Shown piece by piece: positions 13,371 through 25,948 of a stretch of DNA of 64,000 nucleotides (the first letter of the stretch is position 1; each line of letters starts with the position of its first letter). The notes under the pieces are model-generated. The model was not told the origin of the DNA. It saw only the letters and a program-made list of their open reading frames with translations, and made no database searches. The position numbers and the translations under genes are program-made. Origin of the DNA: an uncultured beta proteobacterium (GTDB taxonomy: Bacteria > Pseudomonadota > Gammaproteobacteria > Burkholderiales > SG8-39); assembly GCA_963719995.1 (NCBI GenBank), contig CAVRDW010000005.1:576100-640099 (forward strand), read 5' to 3'.

Positions 13371-14663
13371 TTACTTGGAGATGATGCGGGTGTTGGCGAG
13401 GACCAGCCGGTCGACGAGGTTGCGCACCAGCGCGCGCGTGAGCTGCAGCTGGGCGCCGCCGCTCATCGCCTGCAGCGCCTCCGGCTGGAACTCGGCCAGC
13501 AGCAGCCGGGTCATCGACTCGACGGTGGCGTGGCGCGGCAGCTCGCCGCCCCAGATGTAGGCCATCTCGCCGAAGCACTCGCTGTGGTTGATGACGTTGA
13601 GCAGGCGCCCGCCCTTGGTGACCTTCACCTCGCCTTCGGCGAGGAAGAAGAAGCTGCGGCCCTTGTCGTTCTCGCGCAGGATGGTGCGGCCCTTGTCCAC
13701 GCGCGACCACTTGCCGGCGTTCACCAGCTCCCAGATCTCGGCGTCGGCGAGATCGGAGAGCATGTCCACGCCCTTGAGCGTCATGTACTTGTCGGTGTCG
13801 GGAATCGCGTTGGCGGGCAGCGTGAGGCCGACGATCTTCGAGAGTGCCTGCGCGAACTCGGCCCAGGTCGGGTAGCGCGCCTCGGGCTTCTTGCGCAGCG
13901 CGCGCAGGATCACCGGGTCGAGCTGCCTGGGCAGGTCGGCTCGCACCGCGCTCGGCGGCAGCGGCTCGAGCTCGGTGATCTTCCTGAGCAGCGCCTGCAG
14001 GTTCTCGGCCCGCAGCGGCCGCTGCCCGGTGAGCAGCTCGTAGAGCACCGCGCCCAGCGAGTACATGTCGCTGTGCAGGGTGAGCTCCGCGCCGGCGATC
14101 TGCTCCGGGGACATGTAATACGGCGAGCCCATCAGCGCCGTCTGCACGGCGTGGCTCTTGCGCAAGTACGCCGCGCCGAAGTCGGCGATCTTCACGTCGC
14201 TGCCCCTGGCGATCATGATGTTGGCCGGCTTGATGTCGCGGTGCACGATGCCTTCCTTGAAGGCGTAGTCGAGCGCGCCGCACACCTTGAAGCCGATCTG
14301 CAGCACGTCGGCCACCGGCAGGAGCTTGTCGGGGCTGGTGTAGGGCGTGAGGTCGCCCCCGGTGACCAGCTCCATCGCGATGTAGCCCGAGTCCTCGCCC
14401 ACCACGGCATCGAGGATGGAAACGATGTGCGGATGCTTGAGCTTGCCCGCGAGCGAGGCCTCGTTGAGAAACTGGCCGCGGAAGGCGGTGCCGAACTCGG
14501 GGTCGCGGAACACCTCCGGCTCGATGGTCTTGAGCGCCACCTCGCGTCCGGAAAAGGTGTCGCGGGCAAGGTACACCGTGCCGGTGGCGCCCTTGCCCAG
14601 CATCTTCTGGACGTCGTACTTCCCGACCTGCAGGCTCAGCCCCAGGTCCGCCACTGCAGTCAA
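13371..14663 (-). CDS. Ser/Thr protein kinase with C-terminal cyclic-nucleotide-binding domain
   Basis: Kinase motifs GKGATGTVY, VALK, HRDIKPANIMI and KIADFG. The C-terminal cNMP-binding pattern is FFFLAEGEVKV...ECFGEMAYI...RHATV. Confidence 0.9.
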   Translation of the reverse strand: MTAVADLGLSLQVGKYDVQKMLGKGATGTVYLARDTFSGREVALKTIEPEVFRDPEFGTAFRGQFLNEASLAGKLKHPHIVSILDAVVGEDSGYIAMELVTGGDLTPYTSPDKLLPVADVLQIGFKVCGALDYAFKEGIVHRDIKPANIMIARGSDVKIADFGAAYLRKSHAVQTALMGSPYYMSPEQIAGAELTLHSDMYSLGAVLYELLTGQRPLRAENLQALLRKITELEPLPPSAVRADLPRQLDPVILRALRKKPEARYPTWAEFAQALSKIVGLTLPANAIPDTDKYMTLKGVDMLSDLADAEIWELVNAGKWSRVDKGRTILRENDKGRSFFFLAEGEVKVTKGGRLLNVINHSECFGEMAYIWGGELPRHATVESMTRLLLAEFQPEALQAMSGGAQLQLTRALVRNLVDRLVLANTRIISK

Positions 14664-19422: not shown

Positions 19423-20244
19423 ATGAAATCCCTCTACGATCCCGCCGCCGCCCTCGCCTTCTTCCGCTCGGCCGGCAAGCCGGAAGGCTTTGCCGCGGGC
19501 GCCACCATCTTCCGCGAGAACACGCGGGCGCACGCGATCCTGATGCAACGCGACAAGATGTACTACGTCTACGAGGGCGAGGTGAACCTCGTGCTCAAGA
19601 AGAAGGTCATCGGCAGCGTCGCCAGGGGCGAGGTGTTCGGCGAGCTGGCGCCGCTCACGCACGCGCCGCGCAGCGCTGGCGCCGTGGCGAAGACGCCCTG
19701 CCGCCTGATCGCGCTGGACGACCGCGCATTCGAGGCGGCGATCGTGAAGAAGCCCGCCTTCGCGCTGATGCTGATGAGCGTCATGGTCGAGCGGCTGCGC
19801 CGCACCATCGCAGCGCTGCGCGCCGAGGGCCAGCTCTCGGTCACGGGGGCCTGGAAGGAAGCCAAGGTGTTCGACCGGCGGCAGCTCGCGGACCTCGTGC
19901 AGGGACTCGCCAACGATCCGACGCTGTACTTCGACCGCGGCGCCCAGATCGTCAAGGAAGGCGCCACCGGCGTGCGCATGTACGCCGTGCTCGAAGGCCG
20001 CGTCGCGGTGACCATCGAGGGCAGCATGGTGGAACGCATCGGCCCGGGCGGCGTGTTCGGCGAAGCCGCCCTGGTGGACCAGTCCACGCGCCTGGCGAGC
20101 GTGCAGGCGGAGACCGACTGCAAGCTGCAGCCGATCGGCCGCAACGCTTTCCTTGCGCTCGTCAAGGTGAGCCCGGCCTTTGCGCAGCGCATGCTCGCCA
20201 GCCTCGCCGAGCGCCTGCGGCTGCTGACGGCGCGGCTCAAGTAG
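19423..20244 (+). CDS. protein with two tandem cyclic-nucleotide-binding domains and no recognisable output domain
   Basis: Two repeats of the cNMP-binding pattern: VFGELAPLTHAPRSAGAVA and VFGEAALVDQSTRLASVQA; 273 aa. Confidence 0.8.
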   Translation: MKSLYDPAAALAFFRSAGKPEGFAAGATIFRENTRAHAILMQRDKMYYVYEGEVNLVLKKKVIGSVARGEVFGELAPLTHAPRSAGAVAKTPCRLIALDDRAFEAAIVKKPAFALMLMSVMVERLRRTIAALRAEGQLSVTGAWKEAKVFDRRQLADLVQGLANDPTLYFDRGAQIVKEGATGVRMYAVLEGRVAVTIEGSMVERIGPGGVFGEAALVDQSTRLASVQAETDCKLQPIGRNAFLALVKVSPAFAQRMLASLAERLRLLTARLK

Positions 20245-21546: not shown

Positions 21547-22431
21547 CTAGAAGCAGGAAAACGTCACCGGCACGCCTTCGCCGTCGACGGGGCTGTGGCC
21601 GAAGCCGATCTGGCCGCTGCCGCGCAGCATCAGCTCCTCGCGCCGCAGCACCACCACCTCGGCCTCGCCGGTGAACCGCACCCAGGTGCCATTGGAGCTG
21701 TGGTCGACGAGCACGAACTTGTCGCGCCGCCGCTCCACGCGCGCATGCAGGCGCGAGGCCTTGCGGTCGCCCACCACGACGTCGCAGGCGCCGTCGCGCC
21801 CGAGGGTGAGTTCGCCGGGCCCCTCGAAGCGCCAGCTGCGGCCCTCGTAGGCCAGGGCGAGGCTCGCGGCGCGGCTGTGATCGAGCCGGGTGCTGAGCGC
21901 GGTGAGATCGTCGCTGTCCTGCCAGAGGAATTCGTAGATCATGACCGCGTGGCGCTTGCCCTTCACCGGCACGCCGTCCAGCTTGCGCGCCCGCTCGGCC
22001 AGCGCGGGCGAGAGCCGGGCCACGGTGTCCGCCGTGGTGATGATCTGCCCGTTCTTGGCGAGGCCCGCGACGCGGGCCGCCAGGTTCACGGTGTCGCCGA
22101 ACAGGTCCCCGGCATTCTCCAGCACGGACCCGAAGTGGCAGCCGATGTGGATGCCGAGAGCTGGCGCGTCCGGCTCGAGCTGCTCGGCGGTCTTCTCCTG
22201 CATCAGGCGCGAGGCGCGCAGCGCGGCATCCGCCGTCTCGAACATGCACATCGCGCCGTCGCCCGCGGTCTTGATCACCCGGCCGCCGCACTCGGCGCAC
22301 ACCCGCGAGAGCATCGTCATCGTGCGGCCCACGCGCGCCAGGGCCTCATCGTCGCCGAGGGTCTCGTAGAGGCGTGTGCTGCCGCTGATGTCGACGAACA
22401 GGACGGCGCAGTTCGCGTGACTGGGTGACAT
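21547..22431 (-). CDS. class III adenylate/guanylate cyclase fused to a C-terminal FHA domain
   Basis: Cyclase motifs: VLFVDISGSTRL, KTAGDGAMCMF and GDTVNLAARV. The FHA pattern is LTLGRDGACDVVVGDRKASRLHARVERRRDKFVLVDHSSNGTWV. Confidence 0.9.
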   Translation of the reverse strand: MSPSHANCAVLFVDISGSTRLYETLGDDEALARVGRTMTMLSRVCAECGGRVIKTAGDGAMCMFETADAALRASRLMQEKTAEQLEPDAPALGIHIGCHFGSVLENAGDLFGDTVNLAARVAGLAKNGQIITTADTVARLSPALAERARKLDGVPVKGKRHAVMIYEFLWQDSDDLTALSTRLDHSRAASLALAYEGRSWRFEGPGELTLGRDGACDVVVGDRKASRLHARVERRRDKFVLVDHSSNGTWVRFTGEAEVVVLRREELMLRGSGQIGFGHSPVDGEGVPVTFSCF

Positions 22432-22512
22432 AAGTAACCGGGCCTTGGGTGGCCGCCCCGCAGTCTAAGGGAAACCGCGGCCGTGAATGCCCTGTCGCAG
22501 GCGCGTGCTCGA

Positions 22513-22542
22513 TTGACAGCGTTTCCTCGCGACGCCTAGTAT
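22513..22542 (+). promoter_or_regulatory. sigma70-like promoter candidate for the FecR-like/DUF3365-HAMP/STK operon
   Basis: A perfect TTGACA (22513..22518), an 18-nt spacer and TAGTAT (22537..22542), about 85 nt upstream of the 22627 ATG. Confidence 0.4.
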
Positions 22543-22626
22543 CCAAGCGCTCGAAGCCCTTGATCTTGCGGGGCGCTCGGGCACTGGGCGGTGCCGCCGG
22601 ACTGGGGGAAGGGGAACCGCGTGCGA

Positions 22627-23517
22627 ATGGTGCAACAGGGGCGCTGGGCGCTGGCGCTGCTCGCCTGGCCGTGGGCCGCCGCCGCGGCGGACCCGATGGT
22701 GACCGTCACTCTGCTCGAGGGGCCCACGACGCTCGTTCGCGGCGTGCTGCGCTACGCGCTCGCCGAGGGCGTGCGCCTGCAGCCCGGCGACATCCTCGAG
22801 GTGAGCGACAAGGGCCTCGCAGAGCTGGAGTTCACCGATGGCGTCGCCCTGGCCCTGGGCCCGAAGACCCGCGTGCTGGCGCTGTCGGTGCCCCGCGGCA
22901 AGCCGGCGCCGGGCGATTTCTATGTGACGCAGGGTGCGCTCAAGCTCGCCGGCGTGAAGCAGGGCGCGCGCCTGCGCGTCGCGACGCCCTTGCTCACGCT
23001 GCAAGCCGCGGAAGGCACCGTGGTGATGGCGCTCGGCGGCGCGGACGCATCGGTCTTCGTGGAGGCTGGCGAAGCGCGCGTGGCCGGGTCGGGCGCCGCG
23101 GGCACGGCGCCGGTGCGCCTCAAGAGCGGTGACTTTTATACTGGCGACGACAAGAAGGGCAGCGTGGCCGCGCGCCCCTCGTCGGCATTCATCGACGCGC
23201 TGCCCAAGGCGTTCCTCGACCCGCTGCCCTCGCGCATCGCGCGCTACGGCGACCGCCAGGTGCAGCCGCGGCGGCTGGAGCCCGTCAAGTACGCGGAGGT
23301 CGAGACCTGGCTCAAGGCGCCGCCCGAGATCCGCCGGCGCATGCCCGCGCGCTTCCAGTCGCGCGCGGCCGACCCGGCGTTCCGCGCCGCCCTGATCGAG
23401 AACCTCAAGTTCCATCCGGAGTGGGATCCGATCCTGTTTCCGGAGAAGTACCTGCCGAAGGAAACCGAAGCCGCGCCCGGCACTGCCGCGCCGCCACGGC
23501 CGGCGGACAAGCGCTGA
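22627..23517 (+). CDS. secreted FecR-like domain protein
   Basis: Met 13 of ORF 22591..23517 follows a GGGGAAGGGGAA purine tract. The signal is MVQQGRWALALLAWPWAAAAA. The FecR-like segment is LLEGPTTLVRG...GVRLQPGDILEVSDKGLAELEFTDGVALALGPKTRV. Confidence 0.65.
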   Translation: MVQQGRWALALLAWPWAAAAADPMVTVTLLEGPTTLVRGVLRYALAEGVRLQPGDILEVSDKGLAELEFTDGVALALGPKTRVLALSVPRGKPAPGDFYVTQGALKLAGVKQGARLRVATPLLTLQAAEGTVVMALGGADASVFVEAGEARVAGSGAAGTAPVRLKSGDFYTGDDKKGSVAARPSSAFIDALPKAFLDPLPSRIARYGDRQVQPRRLEPVKYAEVETWLKAPPEIRRRMPARFQSRAADPAFRAALIENLKFHPEWDPILFPEKYLPKETEAAPGTAAPPRPADKR

Positions 23518-23539
23518 CGGCAACGTAAGGAGCCTCGCC

Positions 23540-24415
23540 ATGAGACTGGTCGTCAAGTTCAACTTGGTGTTCCTGTTCGTGTTCCTCATCGGCCTCGCCG
23601 CGGCGGGCTACGTCTCCGACCAGCTGCTGCAGAAGAACGCGCGCGACGAGATCGTGCTCAACGCGCGCCTGGTCATGGAGTCGGCGCTCGCCACCCGCGC
23701 CTACACCTCGACGCAGGTGGGGCCGCTGCTGCAGACGCAGATGAAATACAAGTTCCTGCCGCAGTCGGTGCCCGCCTACTCCGCGACCGAGGTCTTCAAC
23801 GGCCTGCGCAAGTCATTTCCCGATTACGCCTACAAGGAAGCCACGCTCAACCCCACCAACCCGAGCAACCGCGCCAACGACTGGGAGGCCGACATCGTCC
23901 ACCAGTTCCGCAACGCCGCCGACAAGCCTGAGGTGGTGGGCGAGCGCGACACCCCGAACGGCAGGTCGTTCTTCATCGCCCGGCCGATCCAGATCAAGCA
24001 GGAGTCCTGCCTGTATTGCCACTCGACGGTCGACGCGGCGCCCAAGACGCTGGTGGAGCGCTACGGGCCGGCCAACGGCTTCGGCTGGAAGCTGAACGAG
24101 GTGATCGGCGCGCAGATCGTCTCCGTGCCGACCGAAGTGCCGATCGCGCGCGCCAACGCGGCGTTCAAGACCTTCATGGTGTCGCTCACCGTGGTGTTCG
24201 GCTTCATCTTCGTCGCGCTCAACCTGATGCTGTGGTTCATGGTCATCCGCCCGGTCACGCGGCTGTCGAAGTTCGCCGACGCGGTGAGCCAGGGCGAGAA
24301 CCTGGATGCGTCCGACTTCCCGGTCGCCAGCCGGGACGAGATCGGCGTGCTCACGCAGTCCTTCAACCGCATGAAGAAGAGCCTGGTGCAGGCGATGAAG
24401 ATGCTCGAGGGCTGA
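23540..24415 (+). CDS. DUF3365 (haem c-binding, CxxCH) periplasmic sensor domain - TM - HAMP protein with no output domain
   Basis: N-terminal TM helix, periplasmic domain with CLYCH, second TM (FMVSLTVVFGFIFVALNLMLWFMVI) and a HAMP segment (RPVTRLSKFADAVSQG...EIGVLTQSFNRMKKSL). The protein ends 10 aa later. Confidence 0.75.
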   Translation: MRLVVKFNLVFLFVFLIGLAAAGYVSDQLLQKNARDEIVLNARLVMESALATRAYTSTQVGPLLQTQMKYKFLPQSVPAYSATEVFNGLRKSFPDYAYKEATLNPTNPSNRANDWEADIVHQFRNAADKPEVVGERDTPNGRSFFIARPIQIKQESCLYCHSTVDAAPKTLVERYGPANGFGWKLNEVIGAQIVSVPTEVPIARANAAFKTFMVSLTVVFGFIFVALNLMLWFMVIRPVTRLSKFADAVSQGENLDASDFPVASRDEIGVLTQSFNRMKKSLVQAMKMLEG

Positions 24416-24430
24416 GGCGCCCCGACCCGG

Positions 24431-25948
24431 ATGACGAAGCGCAAACCGCCCGCAGTTCCCGCGCAGCTCGGCAAGTACACCATCTCGGAGGTCCTCGGCA
24501 AAGGGGCCATGGGGGTCGTCTACAAGGGTTTCGATCCCCACATCCGGCGCACCGTCGCACTCAAGACCATCCGCAAGGACCTGGTGGACGACGAGCAGGA
24601 GGCGACGCTCCTCGCCCGCTTCCACAACGAGGCCCAGGCCGCCGGCCGGCTGTCGCATCCGGGCATCGTCGGCGTGTACGAGTGGGGCGAGGAAGGCGAC
24701 GTCGCCTTTCTCGCCATGGAGTACGTCGAAGGCAACAGCCTGCGCGAGTACTTCGTGCGCGGCACGCGCTTCGACGGGCGGGACATGGTGAGCGTCATGG
24801 TGCAGGTGCTCGACGCCCTGCAGCACGCGCACGAGCAGGGGGTGTGGCACCGCGACATCAAGCCGGCCAACATCATCGTGATGAAGAACGGCAAGCTGAA
24901 GATCGCGGATTTCGGCATCGCGCGCATCGACTCCTCCAACCTCACGCAGATCGGCGCGATCATGGGCACCCCCGGCTACATGTCGCCCGAGCAGTACAGC
25001 GGGGCGAGCGTGGACTGGCGCGCCGACCTCTTTTCGGCGGGCGTCGTCATGTACCAGTTGCTGACGGGCGAGCGCCCGTTTACCGGCAGCGCCGAGTCCA
25101 TCGCCTACAAGGTCTGCCACGAGAAGCCCCGGCTGCCCTCCGAAGTGGTTCCCGCGCGCTGCAGCGAGCAGTTCGACGCGGTGGTGATGGCGGCGCTCGC
25201 CAAGAAGCCGGAGGACCGCTTCCAGGATGCGCGCGCGTTCCGCGACGCGGTGCTCGACGCGCACGCGGCCCCGGCGAACCCGACGCTGTCGGAGGAGACG
25301 ATCCTCAACGTGCCGGTGCGCTCAACGGCCCAGCTCGAGCCTTCGCTGCCCTCGCAGCCGTCGCGGCCCTCGCAGCCTCCACAGGCTTCGCAGCCATCAC
25401 AGCCGTCGCAGCCGTCGCAGCCGTCCCAATCGTCGCAGCCCCCGGGCTCCACGCCCGGCTCGCAGGCGCCCGCCGCGAAGACCGTGCCGCCCGCCGGCTG
25501 GGAGGCCGCGCCGCTCAAGCAGATCGAGCAGCAGCTGGCGCGCTACGTCGGCCCGGTCGCCAGGGTCCTGGTGCGCCGCGGCGCCAGTCAGACGACGGAT
25601 GTCGACCAGCTGTACCGCATGCTCGCGGAGAACCTGGCGAACCCCGATGAGCGCACGGCGTTTCTCGCCGGGCGGAAACCATCCGCCGCTGCGGGGGATC
25701 CAGGCGAAGCAGGCGCAACCGCAGGGGCGCGTGCGCCCGCGACCGGCCTCGCCGGGCAACTGACGCCCGAGGCCGTCGAACAGGCGACCAAGCGGCTCGC
25801 CGCCTATCTCGGCCCCATCGCGAAGGTCGTTGCAAAGAAGGCGGCGACGCAGGCAAGCGGCCGCCGCCACTTCTACCTGCTGCTCGCCGACAACCTCGCC
25901 AGTCCCAACGACCGGGCCCAGTTCCTGCACGACGTCGGCGTCGAATAG
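24431..25948 (+). CDS. Ser/Thr protein kinase with a PSQ-repeat linker and two repeated C-terminal ~60-aa modules
   Basis: GKGAMGVVY, VALK, HRDIKPANIIV and KIADFG. The linker is PSLPSQPSRPSQPPQASQPSQPSQPSQPSQSSQPP. The repeated modules are LKQIEQQLARYVGPVARVLV...LAENLANPDERTAF and VEQATKRLAAYLGPIAKVVA...LADNLASPNDRAQF. Confidence 0.9.
   Translation: MTKRKPPAVPAQLGKYTISEVLGKGAMGVVYKGFDPHIRRTVALKTIRKDLVDDEQEATLLARFHNEAQAAGRLSHPGIVGVYEWGEEGDVAFLAMEYVEGNSLREYFVRGTRFDGRDMVSVMVQVLDALQHAHEQGVWHRDIKPANIIVMKNGKLKIADFGIARIDSSNLTQIGAIMGTPGYMSPEQYSGASVDWRADLFSAGVVMYQLLTGERPFTGSAESIAYKVCHEKPRLPSEVVPARCSEQFDAVVMAALAKKPEDRFQDARAFRDAVLDAHAAPANPTLSEETILNVPVRSTAQLEPSLPSQPSRPSQPPQASQPSQPSQPSQPSQSSQPPGSTPGSQAPAAKTVPPAGWEAAPLKQIEQQLARYVGPVARVLVRRGASQTTDVDQLYRMLAENLANPDERTAFLAGRKPSAAAGDPGEAGATAGARAPATGLAGQLTPEAVEQATKRLAAYLGPIAKVVAKKAATQASGRRHFYLLLADNLASPNDRAQFLHDVGVE
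25341..25443 (+). repeat. imperfect tandem 9-bp (CCGTCGCAG, Pro-Ser-Gln) coding repeat inside the kinase gene
   Basis: About 11 successive CCn-TCG-CAG-like units are visible in the DNA and translate to (PSQ)n. Confidence 0.85.

Follow-up and report, generated by a model that had tools for sequence, protein, structure and literature searches.

A cyclase-FHA gene divergent from a haem receptor-kinase operon is a candidate cAMP output in soil betaproteobacteria

The closest described relative of the locus considered here is the Cache_haem-HAMP ("CHH") receptor of P. azotoformans, reported by Deshpande, Xu, Dunleavy, Zhulin, and Crane (bioRxiv 10.64898/2026.05.25.727664), with a companion paper on the family (10.64898/2026.02.01.703092). 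The receptor binds nitric oxide (NO), and the affinity between it and the kinase encoded in its operon is nanomolar. In a 3.47 Å structure solved by cryogenic electron microscopy (cryo-EM), the HAMP dimer is touched by two C-terminal kinase modules that carry the motifs IGPLARFLVRKSLN and IGPIARIVVSRALR. The kinase phosphorylates Thr256 of the HAMP domain, faster with NO bound, and the trigger for increased phosphorylation is bound NO and not redox state by itself. The authors state that downstream consequences are unknown; the main text names no output and leaves FecR, FHA, and cyclic adenosine monophosphate (cAMP) unmentioned (bioRxiv 10.64898/2026.05.25.727664). We analyzed a 64,000-nucleotide stretch of DNA from an uncultured betaproteobacterium (hereafter the window; contig CAVRDW010000005.1, positions 576,100 to 640,099), which has a G+C content of 69% and is part of a 2.24-Mb contig from a soil metagenome-assembled genome with 79% completeness. 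In it, a gene for a cyclase with a C-terminal FHA domain (cyclase-FHA) is divergent from an operon encoding a FecR-like protein, a CHH receptor, and a Ser/Thr kinase (table 1). This locus and some 50 relatives offer a concrete candidate for the output that the preprint leaves open, namely an adenylyl cyclase that may be gated by its FHA domain.

Other known systems resemble parts of the locus. GarA of Mycobacterium and OdhI of Corynebacterium combine an FHA domain with a disordered N-terminal segment that bears a phospho-acceptor threonine, and are switched by PknB/PknG. The cyclase-FHA protein likewise joins a canonical FHA domain and an invariant threonine in a predicted disordered segment on one polypeptide, with a genomic tie to a Hanks kinase, but its FHA domain is fused to a class III cyclase whereas theirs inhibits separate enzymes, and its threonine lies between domains. 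In the PpkA-Fha1-PppA pathway of type VI secretion, a periplasmic input acts through a Hanks kinase and phosphothreonine on an FHA protein encoded nearby. There the result is assembly of a secretion machine, whereas here the FHA protein is a predicted cyclase and the soluble kinase is predicted to dock on a separate receptor. Ma1120 of M. avium, the cyclase domain of Rv1900c, and CyaB of P. aeruginosa have the same catalytic residues as the window cyclase and match its fold at 25–30% identity, but none has an FHA domain. A literature search found no experiments on bacterial cyclases regulated through FHA. CyaD of the cyanobacterium Anabaena is presumably an FHA-cyclase, in which case FHA would be joined to a cyclase in other organisms too.

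Judged from sequence, the window operon is orthologous to the P. azotoformans receptor-kinase pair. Both receptors have a periplasmic haem c Cache domain with a CXXCH motif, two transmembrane segments, and an output-less HAMP domain, and both are encoded adjacent to a soluble PknB-like kinase that has two helical modules with an (I/V/L)GPxA(R/K) motif and lacks PASTA domains. In the window receptor, the Tll0287-like domain (PF11845, DUF3365) is matched with an E-value of 1.4e-41, the two hydrophobic segments span residues 1–30 and 207–240, and the chain stops eight residues past HAMP. It is the only protein of the operon and cyclase with transmembrane segments. The first-pass annotation had called this gene a CxxCH DUF3365-TM-HAMP protein and its neighbor a soluble Hanks-type kinase, and both descriptions hold: Pfam, used for all domain assignments in the window, identifies the sensor and HAMP domains, a CLYCH motif is present, and the kinase has a Pkinase domain and no hydrophobic segment.

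The docking motifs of the window kinase read YVGPVARVLV and YLGPIAKVVA, and that of module 1 matches IGPLARFLVRK of the published cryo-EM complex. Its AlphaFold2 model comprises the kinase domain, a disordered P/S/Q linker (residues 295–351), and two helical modules parted by a disordered stretch. By analogy with the published complex, the kinase is predicted to dock on HAMP through these modules. The C-terminal repeats have no Pfam, NCBIfam, or PDB sequence match, and their identity comes from the motifs in the preprint, not from family libraries. Within the genome, docking repeats occur only on this kinase, and the CHH receptor and the FecR-like protein of the operon type are likewise each encoded just once. 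Part of the linker (25341–25443) is a run of P-S-Q units, and the linker varies in length among orthologues.

Back-translation of the first published docking motif recovered eight Pseudomonas loci with the exact published peptide. A CHH receptor, 50% identical to that of the window, is encoded at seven, and a FecR-like gene lies upstream at six of these seven, giving the same gene order as in the window (FecR-like, CHH, kinase). At the one locus checked for it (L126), a PP2C gene follows the kinase. The window operon differs in lacking a PP2C gene and in having a cyclase-FHA gene divergently attached. As to the earlier proposal that a periplasmic redox or ligand signal reaches the kinase, the route from sensor to kinase stands by orthology to the CHH pair, but a signal of redox state alone does not fit the behavior of that pair. 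The receptor-kinase core is thus already described in the preprint; the literature search turned up no account of a cyclase-FHA partner, of the FecR-domain protein as a near-universal partner, of the nonconservation of Thr256, or of a general pairing of this cyclase-FHA family with Hanks kinases.

Conservation of gene neighborhood ties cyclase-FHA genes to kinases. We compiled a receptor-centered set (the best 80 of at least 557 genome loci encoding close CHH receptor relatives, of which ∼76 could be assessed for a cyclase-FHA gene), a cyclase-centered set (80 species-level loci of at least 589 cyclase-FHA loci), and 61 genomes of relatives, 25 in the genus of the window, sampled independently of either gene. 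In the receptor-centered set, 25 of 80 loci, all betaproteobacterial, have a cyclase-FHA gene upstream of the FecR-like gene and in divergent orientation; none was found at the 14 acidobacterial loci, at the assessable Pseudomonas loci, or at the loci described below in which a cyclase-homology protein replaces the kinase. In the cyclase-centered set, the full operon is divergently adjacent in 52 of 80 loci, and two more on truncated contigs show the FecR-like gene. Four others are divergent from a gene for a kinase-sCache_3-HAMP fusion, 15 are convergent with the gene for a kinase of ∼800 residues (Rhodocyclales, including cultured Methyloversatilis), and seven have no kinase, three of them on truncated contigs. 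A Hanks kinase is encoded within 4 kb in ∼90% of this subfamily, and remoter cyclase-FHA paralogues adjoin genes for kinase-BON and kinase-Sel1 proteins.

The fusion proteins (L150:5188-6810, L206:5135-6964, L151, and L201) are single chains ordered kinase, transmembrane segment, sCache_3, transmembrane segment, HAMP; by architecture they would, in effect, be the fused counterpart of a receptor with its docked kinase. The convergent kinases (in L169, L173, L182, and L202 of Methyloversatilis, and in other Rhodocyclales) are ∼800–840 residues long with a C-terminal 500 residues that have no Pfam match. The four Methyloversatilis loci are from cultured strains and could serve genetics; L169 is that of Methyloversatilis universalis FAM5. 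The full four-gene module was not encountered in any cultured strain.

A divergent layout could simply couple transcription, for example by cAMP feedback on the shared control region, with the FHA domain reading another kinase or working independently of phosphate. The shared spacer does have a conserved promoter and conserved promoter spacer sequence, orphan cyclase-FHA paralogues exist without a neighboring kinase, one of them is preceded by a gene for a CRP-type regulator (L026), and the genome encodes ∼13 Hanks kinases. However, kinases of at least four architectures adjoin ∼90% of the subfamily in divergent, convergent, and tandem orientations, so promoter sharing cannot explain kinase proximity, and the phosphothreonine pocket of the FHA domain is invariant. 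We consider co-regulation as the sole basis of the linkage to be improbable.

The phylogenetic pattern is consistent with a shared history of the cyclase-FHA gene and the operon. Among the 25 genomes of the window's genus, the receptor and a window-type cyclase occur together in six, the receptor occurs alone in one, that cyclase alone in none, and 18 lack the two (Fisher p = 4e-5, without correction for phylogeny or incomplete genomes). The window-type cyclase-FHA proteins of the six genomes are 78–100% identical, and their genes always adjoin the receptor operon. In the receptor tree, linkage is spread over several clades and supported branches force at least five gains or losses, which rules out a single origin. 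The tree of the linked cyclase-FHA proteins resolves into three clades that parallel those of the receptor. Parallel clades and scattered linkage indicate long co-inheritance with repeated loss. Flanking genes (PPK2, MFS, and a protein that binds cyclic nucleotide monophosphates [cNMP]) shuffle and the four genes stay together. Co-diversification, with co-presence and co-absence within the genus, rules out chance adjacency; the co-occurrence across genomes that the first-pass annotation had singled out as informative is that of a conserved, co-diversifying neighborhood. In a genome of a different genus (G036), the operon faces two tandem cyclase-FHA genes. In a genome of another family (G042:C1:165201-176871), the cyclase-FHA and CHH receptor genes are ∼10 kb apart, with another kinase gene between them and the contig start.

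The features of the cyclase-FHA protein itself are strongly conserved. It is soluble, with no hydrophobic or transmembrane segment. Across 81 subfamily members, the metal-binding pair (Asp14 and Asp58) is invariant, as are Asp109 of the adenine-specifying pair and Arg120 of the transition-state pair; their partners Lys54 and Asn116 are present in 77 and 72 members, respectively. In the phosphothreonine pocket, R212, S226, H229, and N247 are present in all 81; in a second set of 49 sequences, conservation of G211, R227, G248, and T249 is 97% or higher, and none of these four varies in a 25-sequence alignment (A2). The AlphaFold2 model has two folded domains (mean predicted local distance difference test [pLDDT] of 86.7), and the best Foldseek matches of the cyclase half are Ma1120 and Rv1900c (target-normalised TM-score of 0.86–0.88; E of 1e-13). 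With the residue set and modeled fold of a class III adenylyl cyclase, the protein is predicted to synthesize cAMP, and with the full GR, SxxH, and NG(T) pocket, its FHA domain is predicted to bind phosphothreonine. FHA proteins can modulate their kinases, and cyclase-FHA might act on the kinase as a pseudosubstrate, clamp, or scaffold, with cAMP being incidental. We find this very hard to credit because the cyclase catalytic residues are invariant across the 81 members, indicating that catalysis is under selection.

The genome encodes four FHA-domain proteins, three of which are cyclase-FHA fusions (regions concerned include C1:974954-976914 and C1:1195555-1196385). One of these fusions is 73% identical to that of the window (C5:771363-772217; L026:9364-10218), is a recent duplicate according to the tree, and has no kinase encoded nearby. 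Directly before it and on the same strand is a gene for a CRP-family regulator with cNMP_binding and HTH_Crp_2 domains (L026:8250-8960). The fourth FHA protein belongs to a classical FHA-PP2C-kinase cluster.

Between the two domains lies the motif E-x-x-W-Q-x-x-(D/E)-(D/E)-L-T-x-(L/M/K), in which Trp170 and Thr177 are each present in 81 of 81 members (49 of 49 and 48 of 49 in the second set). AlphaFold2 predicts residues 173–186, around Thr177, to be disordered (pLDDT below 50). In the FHA proteins GarA/OdhI and Chk2, the phospho-acceptor or self-ligand has these same traits, being an invariant threonine whose surrounding linker is disordered, and Thr177 is a candidate for either role. Two threonines of the kinase are the other candidate FHA ligands. 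Thr172, in the activation loop, is shared by every one of the 28 cyclase-linked kinases that we compared with 43 unlinked ones, and it is disordered in the model. Thr290 lies in a post-kinase motif, (E/D)-x-T-(I/V)-(I/L) (EETIL in the window), that is found in 96% of linked versus 60% of unlinked kinases and also in Pseudomonas.

These kinase sites raise the possibility that the FHA domain binds phosphorylated Thr172 or Thr290 merely to bring the cyclase to the receptor, where it would make cAMP locally, with neither phosphorylation of Thr177 nor switching. PknB of M. tuberculosis reportedly recruits GarA through its phosphorylated activation loop, and the constancy and disorder of Thr172 in linked kinases, as well as the enrichment of Thr290 and of a T-x-x-N/D pattern at that site, are in keeping with recruitment. 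But recruitment alone leaves the invariant Thr177 in its disordered linker unexplained. Thr290 is predicted to be in a short helix of fair confidence and may therefore be structural, and its correlation with linkage weakens to p ∼0.25 on independent pairs. We regard recruitment alone as unlikely, though the strongest of the alternatives.

We instead favor functional coupling of the kinase to cyclase-FHA, to which we assign, from comparative genomics, a probability of roughly 60%. In the proposed mechanism, the periplasmic haem c of the CHH receptor would bind a small ligand (NO in the P. azotoformans orthologue), the soluble kinase would be permanently bound to the output-less HAMP dimer through its two C-terminal helical modules, and ligand binding would alter phosphorylation by the tethered kinase, all by orthology. 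In this betaproteobacterial lineage, the reader of phosphothreonine would be cyclase-FHA, a minimal class III cyclase that would be active as an obligate dimer. In the version that we prefer, the FHA domain would dock on the autophosphorylated kinase, which would then phosphorylate Thr177 in the cyclase linker. Binding of phosphorylated Thr177 by FHA, either in trans between two subunits (compare Chk2) or in cis (compare GarA), would switch the cyclase dimer and change cAMP synthesis, to be read by a tandem cNMP-binding protein, a kinase-cNMP fusion, and CRP-type regulators. The Thr177 switch specifically is about half as probable as the coupling itself. The first-pass annotation had proposed that phosphothreonine made by the kinase recruits or regulates the FHA-cyclase; the conserved, co-diversifying neighborhood and invariant key residues speak for this step, the mapped phosphosite, a leucine here, does not, and we still infer the step rather than observe it.

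Several observations weigh against coupling, or narrow it. The mapped phosphosite of P. azotoformans (Thr256 in SLGETDVPEMD) aligns with Leu255 in the window receptor (SQGENLDASDF), every betaproteobacterial receptor examined has Leu or Met at this position, and the HAMP connector of the window has no threonine. FHA domains bind phosphothreonine and not phosphoserine, so HAMP is unlikely to be the FHA ligand here; the published read-out cannot serve as one, and we ruled out phosphorylated Thr256 as the docking site. Thr177 is invariant in orphan paralogues too and is therefore not specific to the window kinase, and the residue at its +3 position is small (S/G/A), matching no classic FHA preference. 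T290-x-x-N/D occurs in 22 of 28 linked versus 4 of 43 unlinked kinases, but the difference gives p ∼0.25 on five phylogenetically independent pairs; as a kinase feature that tracks cyclase-FHA, it was not significant once phylogeny was considered and we keep it only as a lead. The module has no PP2C phosphatase, although two PP2C genes are elsewhere in the genome, and cross-talk among its many Hanks kinases is possible. Finally, two thirds of CHH-kinase loci, including those of Pseudomonas, the 14 of Acidobacteriota, and many of Comamonadaceae, have no cyclase-FHA gene. The core therefore works without cyclase-FHA, which would be a lineage-specific rather than universal output.

The wider reading is that cyclase-FHA is the missing output of the CHH kinase in soil betaproteobacteria, leading from haem/NO to kinase, phosphothreonine, and cAMP, and that the cyclase-FHA family with its Thr177 is a dedicated adaptor that turns kinase signals from several types of receptor into cAMP by phosphothreonine-driven control of dimerization. 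We give this even odds. If true, it would be, as far as the literature search showed, the first demonstrated route from a Hanks kinase through FHA to cAMP in bacteria, would tie periplasmic NO/haem sensing to cAMP/CRP regulation, and would establish cyclase-FHA proteins as a family connected to kinases that differ in architecture. The idea merits testing at the bench, as it bears on a question that is explicitly open in the CHH preprint. The lack of generality of the HAMP Thr256 phosphosite also bears on how the CHH system is interpreted.

The sensor probably has a periplasmic partner in the FecR-like protein, which is secreted, co-transcribed, and almost always present: its gene is upstream of the sensor in 67 of 71 kinase-type loci of the receptor-centered set. 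The N-terminus resembles a signal peptide (MVQQGRWALALLAWPWAAAAADP), and the chain has no transmembrane segment or further domain. This agrees with the first-pass call of a secreted FecR-like protein, although the FecR domain (PF04773) match is borderline (24.7 bits versus a cutoff of 24); it is matched in 14 of 27 orthologues, with a best E-value of 5.8e-8. A profile search of the family against PDB sequences gave only chance-level matches. Identity as a FecR anti-sigma factor was ruled out, as there is no anti-sigma domain or transmembrane helix and the operon partners are a receptor and a kinase.

The layout described in the first-pass annotation proved accurate. All four genes were confirmed by Pfam, with the cyclase-FHA gene divergent from the operon, and the intergenic gaps are 22 nt (23518–23539) and 15 nt (24416–24430). 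The FecR-like gene probably starts at GTG 22621 or ATG 22627, and the shared control region, put at ∼195 bp, is therefore 189–195 bp depending on the start. The TTGACA-N18-TAGTAT promoter candidate is present as well. It is the only sigma-70-like match in 7.2 kb (chance expectation of 0.4), and both hexamers, within ATTGACAG...CGCCTAGTAT, are kept in eight of nine genus-level orthologous spacers, the remainder of which is poorly conserved. The 18 nt that separate its −35 and −10 hexamers (22519–22536, GCGTTTCCTCGCGACGCC) are themselves largely conserved among the genus-level orthologues, and a GCTCGAA block is immediately downstream. The two could form an operator that overlaps the promoter. 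On the other strand, the sequence of a −10-like element tentatively points to a promoter element of the cyclase-FHA gene.

Table 1. Features of the cyclase-FHA locus and nearby genes, in window coordinates
Feature	Position	Strand	Basis or remarks
Cyclase-FHA gene, 294 aa	21547..22431	-	Pfam Guanylate_cyc 3-165 (58 bits) and FHA 209-252 (43.5 bits)
Cyclase catalytic domain, residues 3-165	21937..22425	-	Asp14, Asp58, Lys54/Asp109, Asn116, Arg120
Linker motif W170-QDSDDL-T177-ALS	21892..21924	-	Thr177 codon 21901-21903; conservation, pLDDT
FHA domain, residues ~190-294	21550..21864	-	G211, R212, S226, R227, H229, N247, G248, T249
Divergent control region	22432..22626		Orthologue alignment
Candidate -10-like element TAGACT (TATACT in relatives)	22462..22467	-	~30 nt upstream of cyclase-FHA start; conserved alignment block
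Candidate sigma-70-type promoter TTGACA-N18-TAGTAT of the FecR-like/sensor/kinase operon	22513..22542	+	Sole match in 7.2 kb; conserved hexamers
FecR-domain protein	22627..23517 (alternative starts GTG 22621, GTG 22591)	+	Pfam; 22591 gives the longest open reading frame
CHH receptor, 291 aa: transmembrane segment 1, periplasmic Cache_haem (Tll0287-like), transmembrane segment 2, HAMP	23540..24415	+	Pfam, topology
CLYCH haem c attachment motif, residues 157-161	24008..24022	+	Sequence motif
HAMP domain, residues 235-283	24242..24388	+	Pfam; connector QGENLDASDFPVASRDE without Thr
Soluble PknB-like Ser/Thr kinase, 505 aa	24431..25948	+	Pfam, topology, AlphaFold2
Kinase catalytic domain, residues 16-265	24476..25225	+	VALK, HRD, DFG intact
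Predicted HAMP-docking helical module 1, residues 359-413	25505..25669	+	Motif YVGPVARVLVRR; helices 359-387, 391-399, 405-413
Predicted HAMP-docking helical module 2, residues 446-501	25766..25933	+	Motif YLGPIAKVVAKK; AlphaFold2
Tandem cNMP-binding protein	19423..20244	+	Pfam, two cNMP_binding domains
Kinase-cNMP fusion	13371..14663	-	Pfam Pkinase and cNMP_binding

The tandem cNMP-binding protein, the kinase-cNMP fusion, and the CRP-type regulators are possible receivers of cAMP. The first two had been put forward as receivers from their proximity, and their domains were confirmed. The tandem cNMP gene is syntenic, at variable distance, in four genomes of the same genus, and orthologues of the kinase-cNMP fusion are near the module in three loci (L022, L024, and L025). 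This synteny is only genus-level and lends the proposal weak support, to which CRP-type neighbors add independently; these occur beside the 73%-identical paralogue in the same genome and in L048.

Beyond the window, the order of FecR-like gene, CHH receptor, and kinase with docking repeats prevails among the Burkholderiales and related groups of the receptor-centered set, and the kinase gene is convergent at the loci of Acidobacteriota. At nine loci (L105, L106, and L114–L120; Myxococcota, Methylomirabilis, Acidiferrobacteraceae, Zoogloea, and others), what follows the CHH receptor gene is a gene for a cyclase-homology domain fused to the same two docking repeats, which replaces the kinase (for example, L114:8896-9975 and L119:8881-9987). 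Cyclase-type domains have thus been joined repeatedly to the CHH receptor family, independently of the cyclase-FHA route. The same sensor family also feeds cyclases in Cache_haem-HAMP receptors fused to Guanylate_cyc (10.64898/2026.02.01.703092), but in the window the sensor, kinase, and cyclase are three proteins, presumably linked by docking and phosphothreonine.

The cyclase-homology proteins vary. That of L114 matches Guanylate_cyc with 29.4 bits, several have Asp and Asn rather than Lys and Asp at the specificity positions, and the myxobacterial versions (L105, L115, and L116) are degenerate, lacking the second metal-binding Asp and a Pfam match. In Zoogloea (L117:8882-10864), one chain of 660 residues unites a kinase with a cyclase-homology domain and two docking repeats. 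Two loci encode a docking-repeat kinase upstream of the receptor (L114:5690-7276 and L118:5888-7375) in addition to the cyclase-homology protein downstream, and at these, two effectors may compete for one HAMP domain.

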